From IMG/VR virus record IMGVR_UViG_2537561727_000012: DNA of 10,855 bases; one strand, written 5' to 3'. The first letter of the stretch is position 1. Each line of letters begins with the position of its first letter. This DNA comes from a virus. Its lineage: Duplodnaviria > Heunggongvirae > Uroviricota > Caudoviricetes. A model generated the notes under the pieces. The model saw nothing but the letters and a program-made list of their open reading frames with translations, was not told where the DNA came from and did not search any database. The translations under genes were made by a program, and so were the position numbers. Shown here in pieces: positions 1-10,855 of the stretch.

Positions 1-483
1 ATGACGAAGAAAAAAGCACATAAACCTGGTTCAGCGACCATCGCGCTTAACAAGCGCGCCCGTCACGAATACTTTATCGAAGAAGAGTTCGAAGCGGGAC
101 TTGCCCTGCAAGGCTGGGAAGTTAAATCCCTGCGCGCAGGAAAAGCCAATATCAGCGACAGCTACGTCCTTCTGCGTGACGGAGAGGCATTTCTGTTTGG
201 CGCTAACATCACGCCAATGGCCGTGGCCTCCACGCATGTGGTGTGCGATCCTACCCGTACCCGCAAGTTACTTCTCAACCAGCGCGAACTGGACTCATTG
301 TACGGTCGCGTCAATCGAGAAGGCTATACCGTAGTGGCGCTCTCCCTGTACTGGAAAAATGCCTGGTGCAAAGTGAAAATCGGCGTCGCCAAAGGTAAGA
401 AACAGCACGATAAACGTTCAGATATCAAAGAGCGCGAATGGCAGGTGGATAAAGCACGTATCATGAAAAACGCCCACCGTTAA
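1..483 (+). CDS. smpB: SsrA-binding protein SmpB (trans-translation cofactor)
   Basis: 160-aa ORF whose translation ([30 protein letters not shown]...) I recognise as enterobacterial SmpB; it lies directly upstream of the tmRNA gene, the conserved smpB-ssrA arrangement. Confidence 0.95.
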
Positions 484-677
484 ACCTGCACTCCAATTAT
501 TGACCAGTTCCTCACCGCGCCTCCCTCTCCGGCGGCGCGAATGAACATCTTATTGGCTATCACATCCGACACAAATGTTGCCATCCCATTGCTTAATCGA
601 ATAAAAATCAGGCTACATGGGTGCTAAATCTTTAACGATAACGCCATTGAGGCTGGTCATGGCGCTCATAAATCTGG

Positions 678-683
678 TATACT
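678..683 (+). promoter_or_regulatory. Candidate -10 hexamer (TATACT) of the ssrA promoter
   Basis: TATACT lies about 15 nt upstream of the mature tmRNA 5' end at 698, consistent with a short processed leader. No convincing -35 was found by eye. Confidence 0.3.
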
Positions 684-697
684 TACCTTTACACATT

Positions 698-1060
698 GGG
701 GCTGATTCTGGATTCGACGGGATTTGCGAAACCCAAGGTGCATGCCGAGGGGCGGTTGGCCTCGTAAAAAGCCGCAAAAAATAGTCGCAAACGACGAAAA
801 CTACGCTTTAGCAGCTTAATAACCTGCTTAGAGCCCTCTCTCCCTAGCCTCCGCTCTTAGGACGGGGATCAAGAGAGGTCAAACCCAAAAGAGATCGCGT
901 GGAAGCCCTGCCTGGGGTTGAAGCGTTAAAACTTAATCAGGCTAGTTTGTTAGTGGCGTGTCCGTCCGCAGCTGGCAAGCGAATGTAAAGACTGACTAAG
1001 CATGTAGTACCGAGGATGTAGGAATTTCGGACGCGGGTTCAACTCCCGCCAGCTCCACCA
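698..1060 (+). ncRNA. ssrA: tmRNA (transfer-messenger RNA, 363 nt)
   Basis: Starts GGGGCTGATTCTGGATTCGACGG and ends GGGTTCAACTCCCGCCAGCTCCACCA (tRNA-like acceptor/T-arm with encoded CCA). An internal tag reading frame at 787..819 (gca aac gac gaa aac tac gct tta gca gct taa) encodes ANDENYALAA-stop, the enterobacterial degradation tag. Confidence 0.93.
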
Positions 1061-1070
1061 AATAAATCAA

Positions 1071-1100
1071 GGGGTTACGTGAAAGCGTAGCCCCTTTTTC
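1071..1100 (+). terminator. Intrinsic terminator downstream of ssrA
   Basis: GGGGTTACG (1071..1079), loop TGAAAG, CGTAGCCCC (1086..1094): a 9-bp stem with one G-U pair, followed by TTTTTCTTT. Confidence 0.55.
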
Positions 1101-1118
1101 TTTGGTAGTGGCGGCAAA

Positions 1119-1157
1119 ATGGCGACAGACTTTTGCGTCCATCTTGCCTGTCGCCAT
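1119..1157. repeat. Perfect 10-bp inverted repeat ATGGCGACAG-N19-CTGTCGCCAT upstream of the cargo gene
   Basis: Arms at 1119..1128 and 1148..1157 are exact reverse complements. It sits 27 nt upstream of the ATG at 1184 and just upstream of its Shine-Dalgarno sequence. Candidate operator or 5'-UTR stem-loop. Confidence 0.5.
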
Positions 1158-1183
1158 CTTGAAATCATGCAAAGAGGTTTCAC

Positions 1184-1666
1184 ATGGAAGAACTTCACTT
1201 TGTTTACATCAATGCAAATGGTCGTATCGGTGTTCACTCTATACAGAGCATCAGTTATAGCGAAAATCATATACAGGGCATTTGTAAGAACACCGATCGA
1301 ATAAAAACCTTCCGAAAAGACCGCATTCTTAAACAGTACGATTCACCAGAACAAGCCATTCAGGAATGCGCGTCATTCCTCCCCGAAAGCTACTCACATC
1401 TCACTAAGCAGTCTGGTCCGAAAAAAAATACATTCGATGTGTGTTTCACCGGATTTAAGAAAGCAGATAAAGAAAGATTGGTTGATAAGGCGAATGAACA
1501 AGGATTAACGGTAAGAACCTCTGTAACCCAAAGCCTTCAGATGCTCTGTTGCGGTTACAATGCAGGCCCATCAAAAGTATCTGCAGCCAGGATGAAAGGC
1601 ACAATCATCATAGATGAGCCTGGCTTTATACATTTTCTTGAAACGGGTGAGATCCCAGATGAATAA
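1184..1666 (+). CDS. Hypothetical cargo protein: N-terminal WYL-like domain fused to C-terminal BRCT-like domain
   Basis: 160-aa ORF with a good Shine-Dalgarno (AAAGAGG, 1171..1177) 6 nt before the ATG. Residues ~5-50 (FVYINANGRIGVHSIQSISYSENHIQGICKNTDRIKTFRKDRI) match the WYL-domain pattern ending in R-x-F-R-x-D-R-I. Residues ~84-155 (FDVCFTGFKKADKERLVDKANEQGLTVRTSVTQSLQMLCCGYNAGPSKVSAARMKGTIIIDEPGFIHFL) align by eye to the C-terminal BRCT domain of NAD-dependent DNA ligase LigA. The gene is visibly more AT-rich than its flanks. Domain calls are from memory, not a search. Confidence 0.6.
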   Translation: MEELHFVYINANGRIGVHSIQSISYSENHIQGICKNTDRIKTFRKDRILKQYDSPEQAIQECASFLPESYSHLTKQSGPKKNTFDVCFTGFKKADKERLVDKANEQGLTVRTSVTQSLQMLCCGYNAGPSKVSAARMKGTIIIDEPGFIHFLETGEIPDE

Positions 1667-1692
1667 AAACCTGCCGTAGCAGGTTCTCTTTC
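1667..1692. terminator. Bidirectional intrinsic terminator between the convergent cargo gene and ogr
   Basis: Perfect 7-bp stem AACCTGC (1668..1674), loop CGTA, GCAGGTT (1679..1685). It is followed on the plus strand by CTCTTTCTC and on the minus strand by TTTTATTC. Confidence 0.5.
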
Positions 1693-1911
1693 TCAGAAAT
1701 TCATATGCCCCTGACCACCTGGCAATGGATGTGGAGGAGCAGTAGCAATCAGTGCGGGTGTCACAATAAACCGGACCACTGTTTCATGGGTAACAAAAGT
1801 GCTCCCGCAGTTAATATTTTGGCACTGGCAGTAACGCTCTTTGGTGCTTTCAGTTACTTGAAAACTGCTCCTTGTGTGTGCCGCATGACCACACTTTGGA
1901 CAATTCATCAT
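1693..1911 (-). CDS. ogr: Ogr-family zinc-finger late-gene transcriptional activator
   Basis: The 72-aa product from the internal ATG (MMNCPKCGHAAHTRSSFQVTESTKERYCQCQNINCGSTFVTHE...PHPLPGGQ) has the Cys-x2-Cys...Cys-x4-Cys motif and the length of P2 Ogr / P4 Delta. The ORF-track start at 1956 is a GTG and adds 15 non-conserved residues; an AGGGA Shine-Dalgarno precedes the ATG at 1911. Confidence 0.85.
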   Translation of the reverse strand: MMNCPKCGHAAHTRSSFQVTESTKERYCQCQNINCGSTFVTHETVVRFIVTPALIATAPPHPLPGGQGHMNF

Positions 1912-1979
1912 ATCCAGATCCCTACCTTTGCTATCAGAATCATTGCAATGATACACAAAATATCAATATTGAGAACACA

Positions 1980-3080
1980 TTATTCCATTTCAAGATCACT
2001 TATCCTCACTTCGAGTTCAATGCTGGTTGTAAAACCGTTATCCGGGCTGACGGTATGTGTCAGGGTGGTAATGGTCCATTCCGCATCATCTATCGGCTGT
2101 TTAAAGCCACTGACTTTCACTGGCATTTCCGTGTAGAGATCTGCCCGCCCTTCTGCCAGTTGTAGCGAAAATGACGCAACACCGCGTTGCAGGCGTTCCC
2201 ACTGCATTTTCGCTGCCCGTTCGGCGTTACTCCGATTGGCATAGGTGCGATTAAGTACCAGCACGTTTTCATCCGTACCCACCAGGTAATCGCCCTGCTT
2301 CGCTTCCGGCTCTTTCTTCTGCTTCTTAGTCCTGCGCTTACGCTTCACCGTGGTGCTTTCTTTCTTCGCGGGTTCGCGGGTATGCAACCAGCTGGCAATT
2401 ACTCCCGTGTAGGCTCCGCGATCTGCCAGGGTAAAGCGGTGACTGTCGCCGTCCTTGCGTGTGATAGAGATCACCGGCAGTGGTTTACCAGTGGCGCTTT
2501 TGCCCTGCCCCTGCCGGATGAATAACAGATTGCCATTTTTCACCGACGCAATAGCACCGTACTGGCGCGCCAGCCGCATCAGAAAACTGCCGTCACTCTC
2601 ATTAGTCTGGTCTATATGTTCCACGGGCTTATCCGACAGGTCTTTACCCAGTGCCATCTTCAGCTTGTGACGCGCGGCTATTTCCTTCACCACTTCCCCG
2701 ACGGTGGTCTTATGCCACGATTTTTCACGGCGGGTATTCAGCGTTTCCCGAAAATCAGCACTTCGCGCCCGGATAGTCAGGCGGTCCGGTGCGCCAGTGT
2801 GTTCAATCTCGTCCACTGTGAATGCCCCTTTCGGGAAAAGCGGCTGCCCCTTCCAGCCCAGCGCCAGCGTAATGACCGCACCACGGCGCGGCAGCACGAT
2901 TTTTCCGTCAGCGTCATCCAACTCCAGATCAAGCTGGTCCGCTTCAAAGCCCCGGTTATCCGTCAGCGTCAAACTCATCAGGCGGTTATCCAGCACAGTG
3001 GTGATATCCCTGCCCTCAATACTGATGCTGAATGCGGGAGTTTTGTTGCCTTTGTTAAGCAGTTCTGAGCTGAAATTCAC
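1980..3080 (-). CDS. D: Phage late control / tail protein D (gpD family)
   Basis: 366-aa ORF in the P2 position between U and ogr. Its start overlaps the U stop by 4 nt (ATGA). It carries an unusual Lys/Arg-rich insert (see findings). Confidence 0.85.
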   Translation of the reverse strand: MNFSSELLNKGNKTPAFSISIEGRDITTVLDNRLMSLTLTDNRGFEADQLDLELDDADGKIVLPRRGAVITLALGWKGQPLFPKGAFTVDEIEHTGAPDRLTIRARSADFRETLNTRREKSWHKTTVGEVVKEIAARHKLKMALGKDLSDKPVEHIDQTNESDGSFLMRLARQYGAIASVKNGNLLFIRQGQGKSATGKPLPVISITRKDGDSHRFTLADRGAYTGVIASWLHTREPAKKESTTVKRKRRTKKQKKEPEAKQGDYLVGTDENVLVLNRTYANRSNAERAAKMQWERLQRGVASFSLQLAEGRADLYTEMPVKVSGFKQPIDDAEWTITTLTHTVSPDNGFTTSIELEVRISDLEME

Positions 3081-3562
3081 GACAGCAGCCCTCCCACCGT
3101 TTTACTGATATCGCTTAAGGCAGACGTTGCCGTGTCCTGCAGATTATTCAGTTGCGCACTGAGATCACCGAACATATCGGACAGGGATTCATCCACTCGT
3201 TTGAGCGACAGGGTGAACTCAATCCGGCGCGGCATACCGTCGCGGAAAAACTCCGTTTTAGTCTGATTAAGTCCCTCAATCACATACATGCCGTAAATCG
3301 TGCCGCTGCCTTCAATCAGGGGCCATGCTTTCCCCTGTTCTGCCATCTGCTCCAGTGCCAGCAACGACAGCCTGCCGCCTGTTATCTCCGGCATAAGAAC
3401 ACCGGAAAGCGTCAGCATGTCGTTTTCCGGTCCCAGAAACTGCGTGGACGGACGTCGGTTTACCCGACTGTTTGCCGCATGTCGCCAGCTGCGTTGATAC
3501 TGCAGTTCCTGATACGGAACGGTGCGCAGCATAAACACGTACAATCCCAGCACCATCATCAT
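3077..3562 (-). CDS. U: Phage tail protein U (gpU family)
   Basis: 161-aa ORF (MMMVLGLYVFMLRTVPYQELQYQRSWRH...) in the P2 position between T and D. The first ATG overlaps the T stop (ATGA); the true start may be the second or third Met. Confidence 0.85.
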   Translation of the reverse strand: MMMVLGLYVFMLRTVPYQELQYQRSWRHAANSRVNRRPSTQFLGPENDMLTLSGVLMPEITGGRLSLLALEQMAEQGKAWPLIEGSGTIYGMYVIEGLNQTKTEFFRDGMPRRIEFTLSLKRVDESLSDMFGDLSAQLNNLQDTATSALSDISKTVGGLLS

Positions 3563-6500
3563 GCGTCGTATCCCCCCTGATCGCTGTAGTTACTCCTGGC
3601 TTTTGCCTTCAGCCTGCGTTCACGTTCATCAAGCTGGCGTGCCACCTCCCGCGCAATATCCTGCGCACTTTGTCCTGGCTGCGTCTGGATGATGATCTGC
3701 GTCGGTGCCTCAATCCGGTAAACGGGCGGCACAGTGGCTGCGCGACTCACCATCGCTTCACCGCCTTTCGCGGGAAGCGCCACAGGATGCAACGGTGGAA
3801 GCTCTGCTGGCGCGGCAGCAACGCCCATCATTCCGGCAACAACGGCAGCTAGTGCAGCTGTATTTCTCCGGCTGGTCACATTTGCCGGGCCGTTAACAAT
3901 TTCCGGCCCGTTTTCACCGACGATGCCAAACTGCCCGCGCGGGATATAGCCGCCGCTGTCATACATCCCCGCAAAGCCATATCCCCATGACGGAAAACCA
4001 CCCGATGGCATCATCACTTTACCGTCTGCATTCACCGTCGCAGGTTGCTGACGCGTCACGCTTTCCGGCAGTTTCGCCTTTGCAGCCTCTTTACTGACAA
4101 TGCCGAGTTTCTCCAGCAACCAGGAAACGCCGGATTTCAGGGAGTCCAGCGGATGCATGACCATATTCAGCCCTTCCGCCAGTGCCTCCCCGAATCGTCG
4201 CCCCATTGCCGCTGCACTCTGCAGTTCGGCAGAGGTCGACTTAACGGGCGTCAGCAGATCAGTAAACCAGCCCCACAGCGCCTGTACTTTGTCGCCAATC
4301 CACTGAAACACAGGCTTAAGTGGTTCGAATGCAGCACTGATGGGACCTGCCGCCGCTTTGAATCCTTCCACCACGCCGCCGAGAAATGCGGTGATGGGTT
4401 GCCAGTATTTCCAGACAACCAGCGCCACGCCCGCCAGTGCAGTAACCACAAGACCTATCGGACTGAGCAGAGCACCTAACAGACCAGATATGGCATACAG
4501 GGCAACGCGCAGCATCGCCAGCGGACCAGATGCAAGCACACGAAGCACCGCGCCTGCGGCAGCCAGTCCACCGCGCAGTACCGCCAGAGGATTCATAAAC
4601 ATCACAGCAACAGCACGTAAAGCGGATAATCCAGACCGCAATAGTGCAACCGGCGCACCTGCTACAGTTTTCAGGACATTTCCCGTCAGTGATGCCGTAC
4701 GGCGCAAAGACGACAACGGCGCAGTAAGTAAACCCGCTGCGTTACCCGATGAAGCAAGCCCGCGTCGCAGCACTGCCAGTGGAGCGCCAGCCAGCCAGAA
4801 CAACGCGCTGCTGGTTCGTGTTACTGCTGCCGTAACGGAAGGTAACGTTTTGATGCCCAGCACAGAGAATCCCAGACGGATGACTGCCAGCGGCCCCAGC
4901 ACTGCAGCCAGCGCCACAGCCAAGGTGCCGAGGCCTACGGTAACCGCAGCCACAATAGCGGCTACTTTCATCAGTGTGCCCGTCAGTTCCGGGTTAGCTT
5001 CCACCCAGCGACGCAACGCTCCCGTAACGCTTTTCACCGTGTACAGAATATCCATCAGCGGCTGGCGCAGCGTTTCGCCCAGGCTGCTGAAGGTATTCTG
5101 CGCTCCGGTTTTAACCAGCAACCACTGAGCAGAAAGTGAGTCCTTGTTGATGTCGGATTCTTTCTGCATGGAACCGAGCGCATCATTGCCCGCTGTCAGT
5201 TTTAGCTGGCGCTGTAGTTCCGGCAGGTTGTTTGCCAGTTTCGCCGCGTCATCGCCAAACTCTTTACCAAACAACATGGTCATGGCAGACAGACGCTTGT
5301 CCTGCGGCAGTGCGTTCACCTTCTCCAGCACACGCTGGATAGTTCCCATCGCATCCTTCGTCATCTGCTTTTCAATCACTTCAGGATTGAGTTTCAGCAG
5401 ATTCATCCCTTCAAAGAAACTCTTGCTTTGCATGGTGGCAATGGACAATTCACGCACCATCGCGTTTGCTGCACTGGCAGCAACCTCCGGCGCAGCACCC
5501 AGAGTCAGGAAGGTGGACCCCAGCGCCGCCGCTTTACGATAATCCAGACGGTCAGCCACACCGCCCAGACGTTGCATCACATCGATGATGTCCGCCCCTT
5601 TCGACATGGCGTTATCATCCAGATAGTTCAGCGCATCACCGAGCTGTTCAATATTGCGGGTAGGTATTTTGTAGAGCTGGGCGATTTTCCCCAGACTTTC
5701 TGACAGTTCATCCGCTGGCAGCTCAAAGGCTGTTGCCGCCTTTGCCGCCGTACTGGCGAAGGCCAGCAGGTCACGTTTCTGGTCTTCCCAGCTGTCGTCA
5801 GGGTTTGCGACGTTCATACGCGCACCACCTTCAACCAGTGCAGCGAAGTCCACCGCACCGTTTTCCATCGGCAACTGTTCGCTGGCAGCCTTGATGGCAT
5901 CCTGCATTTCATAAAAACGTGCAGTACGGTTTCCATTATCGTCACGCAGACCATTGACCTGCTTTGCCACACCTTTCATGGCATCTTCTATGCTGGTATA
6001 GCTTTTTACTGCCGCCATCACTGGCGTCCCCATTGCCAACCCTGCAGCCGTGGTAGTGGCTCCGGCTCCTGCAATACGATCGCGCACCTCCAGCGAACGG
6101 GCATAACTGGCACGCGCCGCATTCATCCTGCGCTGAGCTTCCCCCAGTCGCTTCAGCCGCGCCTCCTGTTTCCACAGTTCCTGGTTATAACGTGATGTTT
6201 CACGGGCTAAACGGGCAGTTGCTCCCGCATCATCTTTCGCAGAAATTCCCGCCCGGTACAGTTCTGCACGCACAAGCGCCGTTTGCTTCTGCAAATATTT
6301 TTGTTGTTCTTCCAGGCGTTGGACTGCCAGCGTTTGCCGACCTAAAGCCACAAGGTGCCGTTGTGATGGTTGTTCCATCGCCTCCAGCTCAGAGCTAAGC
6401 AAATTAGCCTTCTGTCTGGCATAGTTCAGCCTGTCGCCTAACTTCTTGTTATCGGCCTGCAGCTTGCGAAATTTTTCCAGGCTGTTACCCACCTGATTGA

Positions 6501-6636
6501 GTTGCTTTAATGCGTCACGGGAGTTTCTGATTGCGCCAGCCAGCTCTTTCGAACTGGCCTGTGCAGCACGGAATGGGCGGGTGAGTTTGTCAACCGCATT
6601 AAGAATGACCTGCAGGCGCAGGTTGTTATCACTCAT
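3559..6636 (-). CDS. T: Tail tape measure protein (gpT family)
   Basis: 1025-aa ORF with N-terminal coiled-coil-like segments and a central Ala/Gly/Leu-rich hydrophobic repeat region, in the P2 position after E/E'. Start MSDNNLRLQ overlaps the E' stop. Confidence 0.9.
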   Translation of the reverse strand: MSDNNLRLQVILNAVDKLTRPFRAAQASSKELAGAIRNSRDALKQLNQVGNSLEKFRKLQADNKKLGDRLNYARQKANLLSSELEAMEQPSQRHLVALGRQTLAVQRLEEQQKYLQKQTALVRAELYRAGISAKDDAGATARLARETSRYNQELWKQEARLKRLGEAQRRMNAARASYARSLEVRDRIAGAGATTTAAGLAMGTPVMAAVKSYTSIEDAMKGVAKQVNGLRDDNGNRTARFYEMQDAIKAASEQLPMENGAVDFAALVEGGARMNVANPDDSWEDQKRDLLAFASTAAKAATAFELPADELSESLGKIAQLYKIPTRNIEQLGDALNYLDDNAMSKGADIIDVMQRLGGVADRLDYRKAAALGSTFLTLGAAPEVAASAANAMVRELSIATMQSKSFFEGMNLLKLNPEVIEKQMTKDAMGTIQRVLEKVNALPQDKRLSAMTMLFGKEFGDDAAKLANNLPELQRQLKLTAGNDALGSMQKESDINKDSLSAQWLLVKTGAQNTFSSLGETLRQPLMDILYTVKSVTGALRRWVEANPELTGTLMKVAAIVAAVTVGLGTLAVALAAVLGPLAVIRLGFSVLGIKTLPSVTAAVTRTSSALFWLAGAPLAVLRRGLASSGNAAGLLTAPLSSLRRTASLTGNVLKTVAGAPVALLRSGLSALRAVAVMFMNPLAVLRGGLAAAGAVLRVLASGPLAMLRVALYAISGLLGALLSPIGLVVTALAGVALVVWKYWQPITAFLGGVVEGFKAAAGPISAAFEPLKPVFQWIGDKVQALWGWFTDLLTPVKSTSAELQSAAAMGRRFGEALAEGLNMVMHPLDSLKSGVSWLLEKLGIVSKEAAKAKLPESVTRQQPATVNADGKVMMPSGGFPSWGYGFAGMYDSGGYIPRGQFGIVGENGPEIVNGPANVTSRRNTAALAAVVAGMMGVAAAPAELPPLHPVALPAKGGEAMVSRAATVPPVYRIEAPTQIIIQTQPGQSAQDIAREVARQLDERERRLKAKARSNYSDQGGYDA

Positions 6637-7065
6637 CGTTGGCCCCGCTTCTCTGAATCGCTTTATACCGCCATTCCAGCACTTCGGTCAGCGGCATAAC
6701 GTCAGTAACGGATGGCGGCCAGTGAAAAATGGTGGCGATATCTGCCACCAGATCGTCAACCGTCAGGCTGTCGGTAAACCGGCAAGCACCGACTTCTTCA
6801 ACAAAAAAGTGACAACCTCAACCGACATGGCAGTGAGATCTGCCGGGTCCATCTCTGCAATTTCCTGTGCAGTCAGTGCCGGGCTGGAGATGCGGGGGAT
6901 CACGGTCATCATCGCGTTCACATCCATATCCATAATCGCCTGCAGGCGTGTACCGCGCAGCGCACCGGACTGCGGTTTACGCAGCACAATTTCGGTGATT
7001 TCTGTTTTACCGCGCTTGATGGGGGTATCCAGTTGAATGGTCTTTTCAGTCTGCTTATCGCTCAT
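6629..7065 (-). CDS. E+E' frameshifted tail assembly chaperone (predicted -1 frameshift product)
   Basis: Shifting -1 at the heptamer extends E by about 57 residues (VEEVGACRFTDSLTVDDLVADIATIFHWPPSVTDVMPLTEVLEWRYKAIQRSGANDE). The extension's stop overlaps the T start codon, matching the P2 E/E'/T arrangement. Confidence 0.6.
6763..7065 (-). CDS. E: Tail assembly chaperone E (gpE family), zero-frame product
   Basis: 100-aa ORF immediately upstream of T. It contains the slippery heptamer T-TTT-TTG near its 3' end, as in the P2 E / E+E' pair. Confidence 0.8.
   Translation of the reverse strand: MSDKQTEKTIQLDTPIKRGKTEITEIVLRKPQSGALRGTRLQAIMDMDVNAMMTVIPRISSPALTAQEIAEMDPADLTAMSVEVVTFLLKKSVLAGLPTA
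6802..6808 (-). other. Programmed -1 ribosomal frameshift site (slippery heptamer TTTTTTG)
   Basis: Minus-strand sequence ACT TTT TTG in the E frame (plus-strand CAAAAAA, 6802..6808). The -1 frame stays open from here to a TGA at 6629..6631. Confidence 0.6.
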
Positions 7066-7119
7066 TTTGCTGTCCTGTAAATTGGGTTCTGGCGCGGTAT
7101 CCCGCGCCGTTCAGATATA

Positions 7120-7635
7120 TCAGAGGCCGAGGGCGTTGCGGTGCGCTTCCATCAGGTCCACACCGTCCACAATTTCCACCATGTTGATAAGGTCCACTTC
7201 ATAGAGCACCTCACCATTGATGGTCAGCTTCGCGTAGCTGTTGGTACTGGTCACTTTGGTGGTGTTGCTTTCGCCCGTCTTCCACTCGCCGGAATCCACT
7301 TCTTTGTGACGTCCACGCACCACAAGCTCCACGGCCTGCACTTCTCCGGTATCGTCACGCTGGATAGAGCCGGTAAAGCGCAACTGGATGCCATCCACAG
7401 TGGCTTTGCCCATCTGCTTAAACAGCAGCAGTTCAGTACCACCAATGGAAAATTCTGTGTCCAGAGCACTGTCATCAAGCCCCAGATCCACATCCACCGC
7501 CCCCGGCATTCCGCCGCCGCGATACTTCTCATATTTGCGGGTGAATTTCGGCAGCGTCAGCGACTCTACGATCCCCTGCCAGTTGTTCCCGTCGTTAAAC
7601 AGGTTCAGATGTTTTAATTTGCGTGGTAAAGCCAT
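7120..7635 (-). CDS. FII: Contractile tail tube protein (gpFII family)
   Basis: 171-aa ORF (MALPRKLKHLNLFNDGNNWQG...) immediately downstream of the sheath gene, in P2 order. Confidence 0.9.
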   Translation of the reverse strand: MALPRKLKHLNLFNDGNNWQGIVESLTLPKFTRKYEKYRGGGMPGAVDVDLGLDDSALDTEFSIGGTELLLFKQMGKATVDGIQLRFTGSIQRDDTGEVQAVELVVRGRHKEVDSGEWKTGESNTTKVTSTNSYAKLTINGEVLYEVDLINMVEIVDGVDLMEAHRNALGL

Positions 7636-7644
7636 GTTGTCCCC

Positions 7645-8817
7645 TTACGCGCTGACCTGGCTGGCAAAATTCACCAGGTACTGATCGGTGATGCGCTGGC
7701 GCAGCATCAGATTTTCAAGTGGCGGCACTGGCGTGTAGTCATAGTCGATGGTGAGTTTTCCGGCTTTCAACGTGTCTTTGTCGTTCACCGACTCATCCAG
7801 CCAGCAATCACCACCAATGAGATACCCCTGACTGACCAGGCTGCGCATTTTGGCGCGGATACCTTCGATAATGTCGCGAGCCAGCGACGGATTCAGCGGT
7901 TTGTCCACCGCCCACATGTGCGCTTCTGCCATCGTGTCCGTCAGTACCTGCGCGGTTCGGGTGTAGTTTTCGAAGGCAAAGAGCGGGTCATCACTCAGAC
8001 AGCGGGAACCCCAGAAGCGGAAACCGTCTTTGCGGATAAGCGTGGTAACGTCGTTCTGGTTAAGCAGACCTGCATCGGTTGCCGGGTCCTGCAGATCCCA
8101 GAACACATCAGCAGAAATTCCGGTGACACCGTTCACGCCCACGTTGGACAGGCTTTTGTGCCATCCGGTCTGCTCATCAATTTTGGCGCGCAGACCGAGC
8201 GCACGAGCAGTGGCATATGCCGTTGCTTCGGCATTCAGCACCGTGTCCCAGCCCGTAAAGTCAGGCCAGATCAGCATCCCTTCGCGCTGGCTGAAGTTTT
8301 CACGGTAAGTGATCGCCTCCTGTACCGTCTTGCAGCCATACGCTGACAGGTAAGCAAACCCACGCAGGCTTTGCGCCACGCTCAGCAACTCAGTCGCAAC
8401 GGCTTTGTTATCGTGGCCTGGCACGCCGAGAATGCGCGGTTTAACGCCGAGCTGTGTCTGGGCAGATAACAGGGCTTTCATGCCTGTTTTTTTACCTTCA
8501 GCAGTCACTGCGCCGATGATATTGGTCGTGGTTTCTTCTTCCGTTTCACCCTGCGGCACACGCACAACAACGGTCACGGGTTTTGCCTGGTCAGCGATGG
8601 CATCCAGCGAACGGGCCAGCGTGCCGGACTCACCCGCTTTACCGCTGGCAGTCAGCACATCAGTGATCAGCACGGGTTTATTAAGAGGAAACATTTTTGC
8701 ATCGGCATCATCGCCCGTGCAGACCATACCCACGATGGCGGTGCTCACCGTGGTAATGGATCGGGTGCCTTCGTTGATTTCAACAACGCGCACCCCGTGG
8801 TGGTAATCCTGAGCCAT
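7645..8817 (-). CDS. FI: Contractile tail sheath protein (gpFI family)
   Basis: 390-aa ORF ([25 protein letters not shown]...) with an AGGAGG Shine-Dalgarno 8-13 nt upstream of the ATG; first gene of the FI-FII-E-T-U-D block. Confidence 0.9.
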
Positions 8818-8893
8818 AGCGGCGAACCTCCTGATTGGATTAGGCTTCGCCCTATGTTGAAGTGATTGTGCCCGACAAACAGCTAAGTGTAGT

Positions 8894-8911
8894 TGTACAG
8901 TTATTCACACA
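8894..8911 (-). promoter_or_regulatory. Candidate Ogr-responsive late promoter element (TGT-N12-ACA dyad) upstream of FI
   Basis: Minus-strand TGTGTGAATAACTGTACA ends 76 nt upstream of the FI ATG. P2-family late promoters carry a TGT-N12-ACA activator site centred near -55; spacing here is compatible if transcription starts about 25-30 nt before the ATG. Confidence 0.35.
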
Positions 8912-8959
8912 AAATGACGGTATTTGTCTACTTGCAGGGATAATCAAAATTATGCTGAT

Positions 8960-9526
8960 TCAGGGGGATTCACTGCTCTTATTTGCCGGAAATTTTCTAT
9001 AAATGGTAGAAACGCCCACATCAAAAATCAGTGCAATACGCTGTCTTGATTCTCCGGCCTCTAGTAAACGTCCAATCTGTGCCCACTGTTCGGTGGTCAA
9101 CTTAGGACGGCGTCCACCTACTCTGCCTTTGTCGCGAGCTGCAGCAATCCCCGCTCTGGTACGTTCAACTATCAGTTCGCGTTCCATTTCAGCCAGGGCA
9201 CCCATGACATGAAAAAAGAAACGGCCCATTGGGGTACTGGTATCAATACTGTCAGTCAGGCTTCGGAAATTCACGCCACGCTGGCGCAACTCTTCTATCA
9301 GCGTAACAAGATGCCGCATACTGCGTCCCAACCTGTCCAGCTTCCAGACAACCAGCGTGTCTCCTGCCGATAGTGTCCTGAGTAGTTTTTTCAGCCCCGG
9401 TCTGTCGGACTTAGTGCCACTGATTTTGTCCTCAAAAATCCGCTCACATCCCGCGCAGTTCAGTGCATTACGTTGCAAATCGGTGTTCTGGTCATTTGTT
9501 GACACGCGTACATAGCCAATAAGCAT
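8960..9526 (-). CDS. Serine DNA invertase (Hin/Gin/Pin/Cin family)
   Basis: Translation from the third Met (MLIGYVRVSTNDQNTDLQRNAL...GDTLVVWKLDRLGRSM...C-terminal HTH) closely resembles e14 Pin and Mu Gin, with the catalytic Ser in YVRVSTNDQ. The ORF-track start at 9532 adds MI; the 9526 ATG has the better Shine-Dalgarno spacing. Confidence 0.9.
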   Translation of the reverse strand: MLIGYVRVSTNDQNTDLQRNALNCAGCERIFEDKISGTKSDRPGLKKLLRTLSAGDTLVVWKLDRLGRSMRHLVTLIEELRQRGVNFRSLTDSIDTSTPMGRFFFHVMGALAEMERELIVERTRAGIAAARDKGRVGGRRPKLTTEQWAQIGRLLEAGESRQRIALIFDVGVSTIYRKFPANKSSESP

Positions 9527-9553
9527 GATCATTCCCCTGAATAAAAACCGGAG

Positions 9554-10087
9554 ATGATGCCAGTTAGCTGTTACCTCTGCATTTTCTTAAACGTTGGTTT
9601 GGGAGAAGGCTCTGCATTACCTGTTGGTGTGCCTGTTCCGTGGCCTTCCGCCACTCCGCCGACAGGCTGGCTGAAATGCAATGGTGCGGCTTTTTCTGCT
9701 GAAGAATACCCGGAACTGGCAAAGGCTTACCCGACAAATAAATTGCCTGATTTACGCGGTGAGTTTATTCGTGGCTGGGATGACGGACGTGGAGTGGATA
9801 ACGGAAGGGGATTATTAACGCTTCAGGACGGTGCGATTGTCAGTCATAACCACTATTGGGGAATCTGGACTTCACGAACTAACGACCAGACTCTGGAAAG
9901 TTTTACAGGCACCACGATTTTAAAACAAATCACGCCCCTGTCTCCGGCCATTGACTTCGATAATTACCCAATTCCCAACCCGGCTATTACAGAGGGTGGT
10001 GTTGTTGCGGCAACGACTAAACCTGCAGGTGCGAATGAAACACGCCCACGAAATGTCGCTTTTAACTATATTGTGAGGGCTGCATAA
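9554..10087 (+). CDS. Tail-fibre C-terminal variable segment, alternative (currently silent) cassette
   Basis: The translation (…PVGVPVPWPSATPPTGWLKCNGAAFSAEEYPELAKAYPTNKLPDLRGEFIRGWDDGRGVDNGRGLL…RPRNVAFNYIVRAA) is typical of the receptor-binding C-terminus of Mu S / P2 H-type fibres. It is on the opposite strand to the late operon and has no constant N-terminal part, so the first ~18 codons of the ORF (spanning the crossover site) are probably not native. It would be fused to the constant part after inversion. Confidence 0.7.
   Translation: MMPVSCYLCIFLNVGLGEGSALPVGVPVPWPSATPPTGWLKCNGAAFSAEEYPELAKAYPTNKLPDLRGEFIRGWDDGRGVDNGRGLLTLQDGAIVSHNHYWGIWTSRTNDQTLESFTGTTILKQITPLSPAIDFDNYPIPNPAITEGGVVAATTKPAGANETRPRNVAFNYIVRAA
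9582..9607. other. Candidate invertase crossover site (hix/gix/pix-like 26-bp imperfect palindrome)
   Basis: TTTTCTTAAACG-TT-GGTTTGGGAGAA has the AAAC(C)-nn-GGTTT centre of Din-family sites. It lies between the invertase start and the beginning of the fibre variable segment, the position gixR occupies in Mu. Confidence 0.4.
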
Positions 10088-10689
10088 TGAATAACGCAGA
10101 ATTAAACAGTGAATTAATTGCCACTATGGCAGGAGAAATTACTGTTTATAACTTTGATGTCATGAGTCGGGAATATATTTCAGCTTCAACTGAATATCTT
10201 GCTATTGGTGTCGGCATTCCGGCATATTCCTGTTTAGATGCCCCAGGCGCATACAAAGCTGGTTATGCAATCTGCCGATCTGCAGATTTTAACTCATGGG
10301 AATATGTGCCAGACCATCGCGGTGAAATCGTCTTTAGCACCGAAACAGGAGAATCAAAAGAAATCACAGCTCCGGGTGATTACCCTGATAATACAACCAC
10401 TATCGCCCCGTTAACGCCATACGATAAATGGGATGGTGAGAAATGGGTGACAGATACTGAGGCACAGCATAATGCCGCAGTAGACGCGGCAGAAGCACTG
10501 CGCCAGTCACTTATTGATGCAGCAATGGCTTCCATTAGTCTGATTCAACTGAAACTACAGGCCGGACGGAAGCTGACGCAGGCAGAAACCACCCGACTTA
10601 ACGCTGTGCTGGATTACATTGACGCGGTGACGGCAACAGATACCAGCACCGCGCCGGATGTCATCTGGCCTGAACTGCCGGAGGCGTAG
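10087..10689 (+). CDS. Tail fibre assembly protein (Tfa / Mu U / P2 G family), alternative cassette
   Basis: 200-aa ORF whose ATG overlaps the stop of the fibre segment (TAATG). The conserved N-terminal part and variable C-terminus are typical of tail-fibre assembly chaperones. Confidence 0.85.
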   Translation: MNNAELNSELIATMAGEITVYNFDVMSREYISASTEYLAIGVGIPAYSCLDAPGAYKAGYAICRSADFNSWEYVPDHRGEIVFSTETGESKEITAPGDYPDNTTTIAPLTPYDKWDGEKWVTDTEAQHNAAVDAAEALRQSLIDAAMASISLIQLKLQAGRKLTQAETTRLNAVLDYIDAVTATDTSTAPDVIWPELPEA

Positions 10690-10855
10690 GCCATTCAATA
10701 TCTGGCGCACTGGAGGAATCAACCAGTTCCAGTGCGTCCAGATAATCCAGCCACAAATTATATTGCGCCAGTTCATCATCTTTCAGACGACCAATAGCGG
10801 CTTTACCGGGCCATTGCTTACTGTTCATGTATTCGTTGGCCTGGTTAATTAGTAG
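10661..10855 (-). CDS. Tail fibre assembly protein, second copy in opposite orientation (3' part only; 5' end beyond window)
   Basis: The minus-strand frame reads …LLINQANEYMNSKQWPGKAAIGRLKDDELAQYNLWLDYLDALELVDSSSAPDIEWPTPPAVQAR-stop, a characteristic Tfa C-terminus. It converges on the plus-strand tfa and overlaps its 3' end by 29 nt (10661..10689), as for U/U' at the centre of the Mu G segment. Confidence 0.7.
   Translation of the reverse strand, partial: LLINQANEYMNSKQWPGKAAIGRLKDDELAQYNLWLDYLDALELVDSSSAPDIEWPTPPAVQAR

Follow-up and report, generated by a model that had tools for sequence, protein, structure and literature searches.

A probable Pin/Gin-type inversion switch for tail-fibre cassettes in a P2-like prophage at ssrA of Escherichia coli

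The 10,855-nucleotide stretch of DNA analysed here (the window) very probably belongs to a site-specific DNA inversion system of the Pin/Gin type, in a P2-like E. coli prophage integrated at ssrA. Its parts can be identified: a serine invertase, two inverted 26-bp crossover sites, and a fibre gene whose constant 5' part lies outside the segment while its two 3' alternatives lie inside it in opposite orientation, each with its own tail-fibre assembly (tfa) gene and both in frame with the constant part. The two orientations occur among near-identical prophages. In the proposed mechanism, the invertase would bind the site at 9582-9607 and its inverted partner inside fibre gene H and exchange strands at the central TT/AA dinucleotide; the segment would then flip, carrying the Collar-type cassette with its TfaE-like gene and the Gp53-like_C cassette with its assembly gene (tfa'), and whichever cassette came to face the constant 5' part of H would be fused in frame to it.

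The locus is already known, in that it is another copy of the textbook e14/Mu-type inversion switch. The same cassettes, with a 100% identical Tfa, already appear under annotation in phage pro483 and many E. coli genomes, and the value of the locus beyond correct annotation is little. It does offer a natural example of a segment that kept flipping after the loss of the head, the baseplate and most of the fibre gene, and this bears on the recent claim that inversion segments of cryptic prophages are kept for host defence.

Genes and crossover sites of the inversion module

The element hosting the module is a P2-like (Peduoviridae) prophage with the gene order FI-FII-E/E'-T-U-D-ogr, as judged from open reading frames, Pfam families and comparison with P2. 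The features of the module and its surroundings are as follows (window positions unless stated otherwise):

7645-8817, minus strand: tail sheath gene FI (Phage_sheath_1, Phage_sheath_1C, Gp18_domIII_N), the first gene downstream of the invertase module
8960-9526, minus strand: serine DNA invertase of the Pin/Gin/Cin/Hin (Din) family, 188 aa (Resolvase and HTH_7 domains, Gin homology)
9554-10087 (open reading frame), plus strand: StfE-like alternative fibre C-terminal cassette with a Collar domain (Pfam Collar, 9e-16), unfused
9582-9607, no strand: invertase-proximal 26-bp crossover site, TTTTCTTAAACG-TT-GGTTTGGGAGAA, central dinucleotide at 9594-9595
10087-10689, plus strand: TfaE-like tail-fibre assembly chaperone of the Collar cassette, 200 aa (Caudo_TAP, 4e-32)
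10661-10689, no strand: 29-nt overlap of the 3' ends of tfa and tfa' (stop codons at 10687-10689 on the plus and 10661-10663 on the minus strand)
10661-10855, minus strand: 3' part of tfa', the second, convergent assembly gene (Caudo_TAP, 6e-16, profile positions 75-130)
11018-12076 of locus L002 (window-equivalent 11104): IS903-like element (GGCTTTGTTGAATAAATC...) that splits the tfa' ATG

All four genes that a first-pass annotation of the window had described (invertase, fibre cassette, tfa and second tfa) are present as open reading frames with matching Pfam families. Comparison with P2 also bears out its placement of the invertase module in the slot of the P2 fun(Z) gene, directly upstream of FI. 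When the spacer between the invertase gene and FI was aligned to the P2 pF promoter, an Ogr site was unconfirmed, the two sharing only a short GACAAATA block.

The invertase open reading frame on the minus strand extends over 8960-9532 (190 aa), with an in-frame ATG at 9532, two codons upstream of the start at 9526 that is homologous to the starts of Gin and PinE and gives the 188-aa product. The Resolvase domain covers residues 5-137 (7e-53) and HTH_7 residues 140-183 (1e-15), and both the size and the arrangement, an N-terminal catalytic domain followed by a C-terminal helix-turn-helix, fit the Din family (a class of about 185-195 aa). Residues 1-184 align over their full length with Mu Gin (PDB 3uj3 and 4m6f, E=7e-93), and the protein is 84.2% identical to PinE of the K-12 element e14 and 72.9% identical to Gin of Mu. 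The catalytic Ser9 is kept within the motif YVRVST, where MLIGYVRVSTNDQNTDLQRNAL is the same as in 4m6f, the wild-type Gin structure (the Gin in 3uj3 carries the S9A mutation). The objection that the invertase may be inactive was checked against these features: the protein is full length and retains Ser9. The assignment to the Gin/Pin family, with a tail-fibre segment that is invertible and laid out as in Mu G/e14 P, is upheld. Strand exchange is presumably carried out by this very invertase rather than by another Pin-family enzyme in trans, and inversion would be expected to depend on Fis and an enhancer. No pair of Fis-like 15-mers 48 bp apart was found in the first 260 nt of the invertase gene, nor over the same length of pinE, gin and the pro483 gene, and because gin, the positive control, gave none either, the scan is without power.

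The cassette proper starts at the crossover centre, 9594/9595. Only 9595-10087 of the open reading frame at 9554-10087 lies within invertible DNA; the reading of this frame as a fibre cassette therefore stands in part, its first 13 or so codons, including the ATG at 9554, being outside the segment. The Collar cassette is 65% identical to StfE of e14, the first 80 or so residues being near-identical. The plus-strand tfa that follows is 87.5% identical to TfaE of K-12 e14, and its RefSeq homologues are named tfaE. On the other strand tfa' runs off the window, where the available frame covers the C-terminal half of Caudo_TAP; the complete gene encodes 147 aa (window-equivalent 10661-11104; called at 10575-11018 in L002) and its product is 50% identical to TfaP of e14. 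The 29-nt overlap between the two tfa genes is real. Its description as a sign of notable compactness does not hold, since the identical overlap is standard in segments of the e14 type, occurring in tfaP/tfaE of K-12 e14, in phage pro483 and in ETEC4089, another ssrA prophage.

The gix/pix-type site pattern, which recovered the annotated boundaries of the Mu G segment (gix) as a positive control, matches the window once, at 9582-9607, and had no match in 200 shuffled versions of that sequence. A second, inverted site beyond the window, within the fibre gene, had been predicted, and it was found inside H in L002 (12467-12492), where the plus-strand core reads AA against TT at the window site; the two sites fall in an inverted repeat of this locus (9496-9522 and 12466-12492). 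In this contig, which is 100% identical to the window, the partner lies 2.97 kb away, or 1.90 kb without the insertion sequence (2971 and 1903 bp between site centres, respectively). The pattern search gave exactly two sites in each of 10 loci, and a multi-site shufflon of the Min type or of the three-site EPEC type is ruled out on that count.

Sigma-70-like sites in the region 8700-10855 numbered 3, against 3.3 expected from shuffles, so the scan says nothing on promoters of the cassette or of the invertase. Terminator-like hairpins in the same region numbered 4, against 1.6 expected; one of them, at 9565-9546 of the minus strand, closely precedes the start of the invertase.

Orientation of the segment among related prophages

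In the orientation of the window, the plus-strand Collar/TfaE-like cassette is unfused, in agreement with the earlier identification of this copy as the one unjoined to the constant part of the fibre gene. Both orientations of the segment, whose detection in a population had been proposed as a check, are present across near-identical prophage assemblies when their sequences are compared. Loci L002, L015 and L019 represent one orientation and L006, L007 and L016 the flipped one, at 99.9-100% identity and with the breakpoints at the site. In particular, the window aligns with each of the flipped loci on one strand from position 1 or 400 to 9608 and on the opposite strand from 9591 to 10855, and the inversion breakpoints fall at 9591-9608. 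Draft contigs also break exactly at the crossover site (ends at 9591, 9592 or 9608), and one scaffold has a gap of 1950 N that begins exactly there.

The open reading frames continue across the site in either orientation. L002 encodes an in-frame fusion of the truncated H to the Gp53-like cassette (246 aa), and the flipped relatives L003 and L007 encode in-frame H-Collar fusions of 513 and 286 aa, respectively. Both arrangements are common in E. coli: the invertase-Collar junction occurs in 909 complete genomes and the invertase-Gp53-like junction in 282. These junctions also occur in e14 and other prophages, so the two counts do not give a clean ratio of orientations. In addition, the segment, of about 1.9 kb, is common, at 99-100% identity, to P2-like elements, Mu-like elements and a third tail type, and the homology ends at the crossover sites. 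The shared segment illustrates the modular exchange of host-range cassettes.

Deletion, insertion sequence and the state of the switch

BNIZ01000001.1 (L002) alone among the assemblies both matches the window at 100% identity and extends past it, and in this assembly a deletion reaches from the portal gene, Q, as far as the 5' part of fibre gene H. A 3' fragment of Q is fused to the last 107 or so codons of the constant part of H; at position 12812 of L002, homology to intact H stops and homology to the portal gene starts. Absent are the 5' part of Q, the genes P, O, N, M, L, X, holin, lysozyme, lysB/C, R, S, V, W, J and I, and the 5' part of H, so that the Phage_tail_fib N-terminal domain of intact H is missing from the deleted form. 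The junction (TGGTACTGAATTTCGGGTCACCGATCGCAGTGAAATGCAA) is also found in at least four further assemblies. An exact search for it among contigs representing one genome per species gave 0 matches, and as none of the complete RefSeq E. coli genomes in the collection spans it, the frequency of the deletion rests on few assemblies. The same contig carries the IS903-like element, which duplicates a 9-bp target (ATTCGTTCA), changes the tfa' start from CAT (plus strand) to CAG, and parts tfa' from its ATG and ribosome-binding site.

The first-pass annotation had taken the minus-strand copy to be the expressed one. In BNIZ01000001.1 this fails, as about 107 constant codons of H are left and the ATG of tfa' is split. 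We consider it probable, from the sequences compared, that the prophage from which the window derives is decaying, and that its switch may flip yet cannot alter host range. It is possible, though doubtful, that the locus is instead a fully working switch of host range in a P2-like phage that is viable and inducible, with the minus-strand cassette expressed in a complete H and the plus-strand cassette silent. Intact relatives with the full layout do exist at ssrA and elsewhere (L014, L003, L010), and scaffold KB732822.1 (L017), 100% identical over 1-9608, has undamaged V, W, J and I genes and an H that preserves its N-terminal 354 aa. The genes missing from the deleted form are intact in this sibling, so whether the gene set is complete depends on which assembly is the source. 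LZDX01000038.1 (L019), which is 100% identical to the window, ends 30 nt past it and thus stops before the informative region. Since that contig ends early and the KB732822.1 sibling has intact baseplate and fibre genes, the window may itself come from a complete prophage whose switch works. Against this stand the sole 100%-identical contig that continues past the window, with its Q-to-H deletion and its insertion at the start of tfa', and the recurrence of the deletion junction in other assemblies.

The view that the module is a frozen relic, its invertase or sites inactive and its orientations left by ancient events or by homologous recombination between the inverted tfa/site repeats, is consistent with the enlargement of the segment to 2.97 kb by the insertion sequence in the window-type contig and with continuing loss elsewhere, L007 being short of a further 2.4 kb (window-equivalent 4835-7201). 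We regard it as unlikely, however, because the invertase frame is unbroken and agrees with Gin at every residue around Ser9, the two sites are undamaged and their core dinucleotides match, and many draft assemblies break exactly at the site. Moreover, L006, L007 and L016 have the same 40-nt deletion junction as L002 and L015, which places the flipping after the deletion, and breakpoints lying exactly at the 26-bp sites in prophages that are 99.9-100% identical and share this deletion suggest that the flip was very recent.

That the segment kept flipping after the loss of virion genes would also fit co-option by the host, a reading we consider very unlikely. Here, an orientation-dependent frame starting at the ATG at 9554 would yield a free, short receptor-binding fibre tip that masks outer-membrane surface receptors and blocks other phages, and this use by the host would retain the invertase. 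If true, the locus would be a recombinase-switched anti-phage system like PinQ/StfE2 of e14, in a P2-like remnant and with different cassettes. The ATG and a hydrophobic leader upstream of the site are conserved (MMPVSCYLCIFLNVGLGEG here, MPFACYFFIFINVGLGEG in e14 stfE), and an e14 chimera from that ATG has been reported to block T2 adsorption (PMC12529663). The Gp53-like cassette, however, is just 29% identical to StfP, no promoter above chance was seen in the scan of 8700-10855, the GGAG is poorly spaced, 0-3 nt from the ATGs, and the small reading frame before the site may be no more than an accident of the invertase promoter region.

Comparison with known inversion systems

The P segment of e14 (stfP-tfaP / tfaE-stfE / pinE) has the same gene order as the locus described here, with the invertase outside the segment and divergent from the unfused cassette. 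The two also share the 29-nt overlap and the inner half of the crossover sites (GGTTTGGGAGAA), and the invertase, TfaE and StfE are 84%, 87.5% and 65% identical, respectively. The elements themselves differ, ours being a P2-like myovirus prophage at ssrA whereas e14 is lambdoid and lies at icd. The second cassette (Gp53-like_C with a 147-aa tfa' product) is also distant from its e14 counterparts (29% identity to StfP and 50% to TfaP), and the segment measures 1903 bp between site centres (2971 bp with the insertion sequence), compared to 1827 bp in e14. PinE, PinQ and PinR all invert the P segment of e14 (PMC12529663), and sequencing and PCR have demonstrated inversion for e14 and for P2-like EPEC prophages (PMC4272514).

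Among P2-like elements, pro483 (Peduovirus, NC_028943) also carries its invertase between the fibre genes and FI, and its cassettes match those of the window locus (94% DNA identity over 9159-10855, with the same 29-nt overlap). It is a complete phage, whereas the matching contig has the Q-to-H deletion, with loss of the 5' part of H, and an insertion sequence within the segment. The P2-like prophage of EPEC E2348/69 likewise has a recombinase gene directly upstream of FI. Fin of the P2-like prophage Fels-2 (Salmonella LT2) is cited in PMC12529663 and among the references of PMC4272514; it resembles the window invertase as a Pin-family enzyme on a P2-like prophage, and can act in trans on other invertible segments.

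The G segment of Mu with Gin, and the C segment of P1 with Cin, share the mechanism, the 26-bp sites and the layout Sc-[Sv-U / U'-S'v]-gin. Gin is 73% identical to the window invertase, which matches the Gin crystal structures at the E-value given above. The Mu segment is about 3 kb long, its U and U' genes are non-overlapping and 28 nt apart, unlike the tfa genes of the window, and its tfa proteins are only about 27-31% identical to those encoded here.

Gene content of the window

The right arm of a P2-like prophage lies on the minus strand beyond ssrA, and the DNA flanking it matches E. coli chromosomes at 99.9% identity. The invertase and fibre region (8960-10855) is upstream of FI in the sense of late transcription.

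Features of the window
1-483: smpB, at the window start
698-1060: ssrA (tmRNA gene)
minus, in the prophage right arm: ogr
1980-3080, minus: D
3077-3562, minus: U
3559-6636, minus: T
minus, between T and FII: E/E'
7120-7635, minus: FII
7645-8817, minus: FI
8960-9532, minus: serine recombinase (Resolvase, 7e-53; HTH_7, 1e-15)
9554-10087, plus: fibre cassette (Phage Tail Collar domain, 9e-16)
10087-10689, plus: tfa, tail-fibre assembly protein (Caudo_TAP, 4e-32)
10661-10855, minus: 3' part of tfa' (C-terminal half of Caudo_TAP, 6e-16), continuing off the window

The first-pass annotation had described 8960-10855 correctly as an invertase, a fibre C-terminal cassette, tfa and a convergent tfa', the last two overlapping by 29 nt; this overlap follows from the stop codons at 10687-10689 and 10661-10663. 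Over residues 1-184 the invertase can be aligned to Mu Gin (PDB 4m6f and 3uj3, E about 1e-92); the alignment takes in the YVRVST motif, which contains Ser9. Identity is 84% to PinE and 73% to Gin.

Several other features accompany these genes. A terminator-like hairpin with a T-run after it (9546-9565, minus) occupies part of the gap from the crossover site to the start codon of the invertase, which it might shield against read-through; such motifs number four in the scanned region (8700-10855), against 1.6 expected. Sigma-70-like promoter matches in that region were no commoner than by chance, at 3 against 3.3 expected. An ATG and hydrophobic leader 5' of the crossover site (9554-9594, MMPVSCYLCIFLNVGLGE) are conserved with e14 stfE (MPFACYFFIFINVGLGE), and GGAG stands only 0-3 nt from the ATGs in this stretch. 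E (Phage_TAC_7, 100 aa) and GpE (39 aa) ORFs at 6629-7065 (minus) overlap the start of T in the usual P2 E/E' -1 frameshift arrangement. Between ssrA and ogr is a 160-aa cargo ORF (1184-1666, plus) whose BRCT-domain match is weak (E=0.0011) and does not reach the Pfam cut-off; in some genomes RefSeq labels it a BRCT domain-containing protein.

Crossover sites and the two orientations

In the invertase family, two dimers on inverted sites assemble with a Fis-bound enhancer, and cleavage at the central dinucleotide followed by rotation inverts the intervening segment; this requires inverted sites with the same core. A scan for Fis-like motifs spaced 48 bp apart gave no pair in the first 260 nt of the invertase gene, nor in those of pinE, the pro483 gene or Mu gin itself. 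A search with the gix/pix-type pattern TTNTCNNAAACC-NN-GGTTTNNGANAA, which as a positive control picks out the G-segment boundaries annotated in Mu, gave a single match in the window (9582-9607, TTTTCTTAAACG-TT-GGTTTGGGAGAA), none in 200 shuffles, and exactly two sites per locus in ten related loci. In BNIZ01000001.1 (L002), a window-identical contig that continues further, L002 9496-9522 (window 9582-9608) and L002 12466-12492 form an inverted repeat. The second inverted site expected beyond the window is thus present at L002 12467-12492, and both sites, which are inverted relative to each other, share a non-palindromic core (TT; AA on the plus strand). The first site sits within the ORF at 9554-10087 and is translated there as the motif LGLGE; the cassette proper therefore begins at about 9595, and the first 13 or so codons are outside the invertible DNA.

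The full-length window is 100% identical to BNIZ01000001.1 (L002/L015) and LZDX01000038.1 (L019). Three further prophages (L006, L007 and L016) match it at 99.9-100%, one strand as far as 9608 and the opposite strand from 9591 onward; the segment is inverted in them, with breakpoints within the 26-bp site. Both orientations therefore occur among near-identical prophages, and the flip occurred within one prophage lineage, since the 40-nt deletion junction on the far side is common to these three and L002/L015. In addition, several draft contigs stop at window 9591, 9592 or 9608, and one scaffold has 1950 N in place of the segment, an effect of mixed orientation, or of repeated cassettes, on short-read assemblies. 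In complete E. coli genomes the invertase-Collar junction is found in 909 and the invertase-Gp53-like junction in 282, although this is not a clean orientation ratio as both also occur in e14 and other prophages.

In-frame fusions form in both states (H-Collar, 513 aa and 286 aa; H'-Gp53-like, 246 aa). Inversion would join the Collar cassette, with its TfaE-like chaperone, to the constant part of the tail-fibre gene H, and the alternate state would join the Gp53-like cassette, with tfa'. The proposal of a Gin/Pin-type invertible fibre segment is essentially right.

A decayed prophage in the contig that continues past the window

Features of L002 (window position = L002 position + 86)
10575-11018: tfa', 147 aa
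11018-12076 (window-equivalent 11104-12162, outside the window): IS903-like element, 1059 bp
after the IS: second fibre cassette (Gp53-like_C, 6e-12)
12467-12492: second crossover site, after the Gp53-like cassette

The IS903-like element has GGCTTTGTTGAATAAATC as its terminal repeats and is flanked by a duplicated 9-bp target, ATTCGTTCA. It interrupts tfa' precisely at the ATG (CAT to CAG on the plus strand) and parts the gene from its ribosome-binding site. The transposase frame of the element is broken into 67-aa and 224-aa ORFs, and none of the flipped siblings (L006, L007 and L016) carries the insertion.

Beyond the second site the constant part of H persists for about 107 codons. Homology to intact H genes stops at L002 12812, after which come the 3' part of the portal gene Q, in the opposite orientation, a TIR-domain gene and the early region; the Phage_tail_fib N-terminal domain (residues 1-150 in a relative's intact H) is missing. 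Thus P, R, S, V, W, J and I are gone from this assembly, as are the capsid and lysis genes, and both Q and H are missing their 5' parts. The deletion takes out every head, lysis and baseplate gene, and its junction at 12812/12813 recurs in L006, L007, L015 and L016. L007 also lacks window-equivalent 4835-7201 (2.4 kb; the 5' part of T, E/E' and the 3' part of FII), a progressive decay of the remnant in which the invertible segment is kept. The claim that the minus-strand copy is the expressed one is contradicted, by the deletion into H and the IS in the tfa' start, in the only assembly reaching past the window. Given that LZDX01000038.1 stops 30 nt beyond the window, and that V, W, J, I and an N-terminal stretch of 354 aa of H are intact in scaffold KB732822.1, whose identity to the window is 100% as far as the site, the window's own source is rather likely, though far from sure, to be the defective form.

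Two membrane proteins are encoded beside the Q fragment (L002 13652-14671, minus), at what we take to be the expected place of the P2 old/tin hotspot: one, of 200 aa, is membrane-anchored and has a TIR domain (TIR_2, 4e-17), and the other is a multi-pass ORF of 138 aa. They are probably an anti-phage cargo pair. A hairpin (L002 13620-13652) separates them from Q.

Relation to known invertible segments

The observation is real, but the system is already known. Inversion in e14 and in EPEC P2-like prophages has been demonstrated by sequencing and PCR (PMC4272514), and the e14 segment is inverted by PinE, PinQ and PinR, all three (PMC12529663). A chimeric e14 product is reported to block phage T2, and the e14 ORF that begins at the ATG matching that of window 9554 was reported in 2025 to give the anti-T2 protein after inversion (PMC12529663). 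That the host has co-opted the present flipping remnant for phage defence seems to us very improbable.

The ~1.9-kb invertible segment (compared over window 9589-10855) also occurs, at 99-100% identity, in a Mu-like prophage (L004, L009) and a third tail type (L005). This homology begins and stops at the crossover sites, so the cassettes pass between unrelated phages as a site-bounded unit. In an EPEC P2-like prophage at ybjL (L025 13732-17217; E. coli E2348/69, NC_011601.1), the entire V-W-J-I-H block is opposite in strand to the other late genes and an S-like gene is truncated at its edge, which looks like a large inversion involving invertase sites; the recombinase gene is directly upstream of FI.

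The P segment of e14 in E. coli K-12 is a close match, with the order stfP-tfaP, tfaE-stfE on the other strand, and pinE; TfaE is 87.5% identical to the window tfa and StfE 65% to the window cassette. The 29-nt overlap, which had been considered notable, is a family trait: tfaP (4133-4546) and tfaE (4518-5120) of e14 overlap by the same 29 nt, as do the genes of an intact ssrA prophage of ETEC4089 with different cassettes, whereas 28 nt separate the two chaperone genes of Mu. The sequenced Peduovirus pro483 has the same genes and overlap, likewise placed between its fibre genes and FI. In P2, as the first-pass annotation had remarked, it is fun(Z) that lies directly upstream of FI, in the slot taken here by the invertase module.
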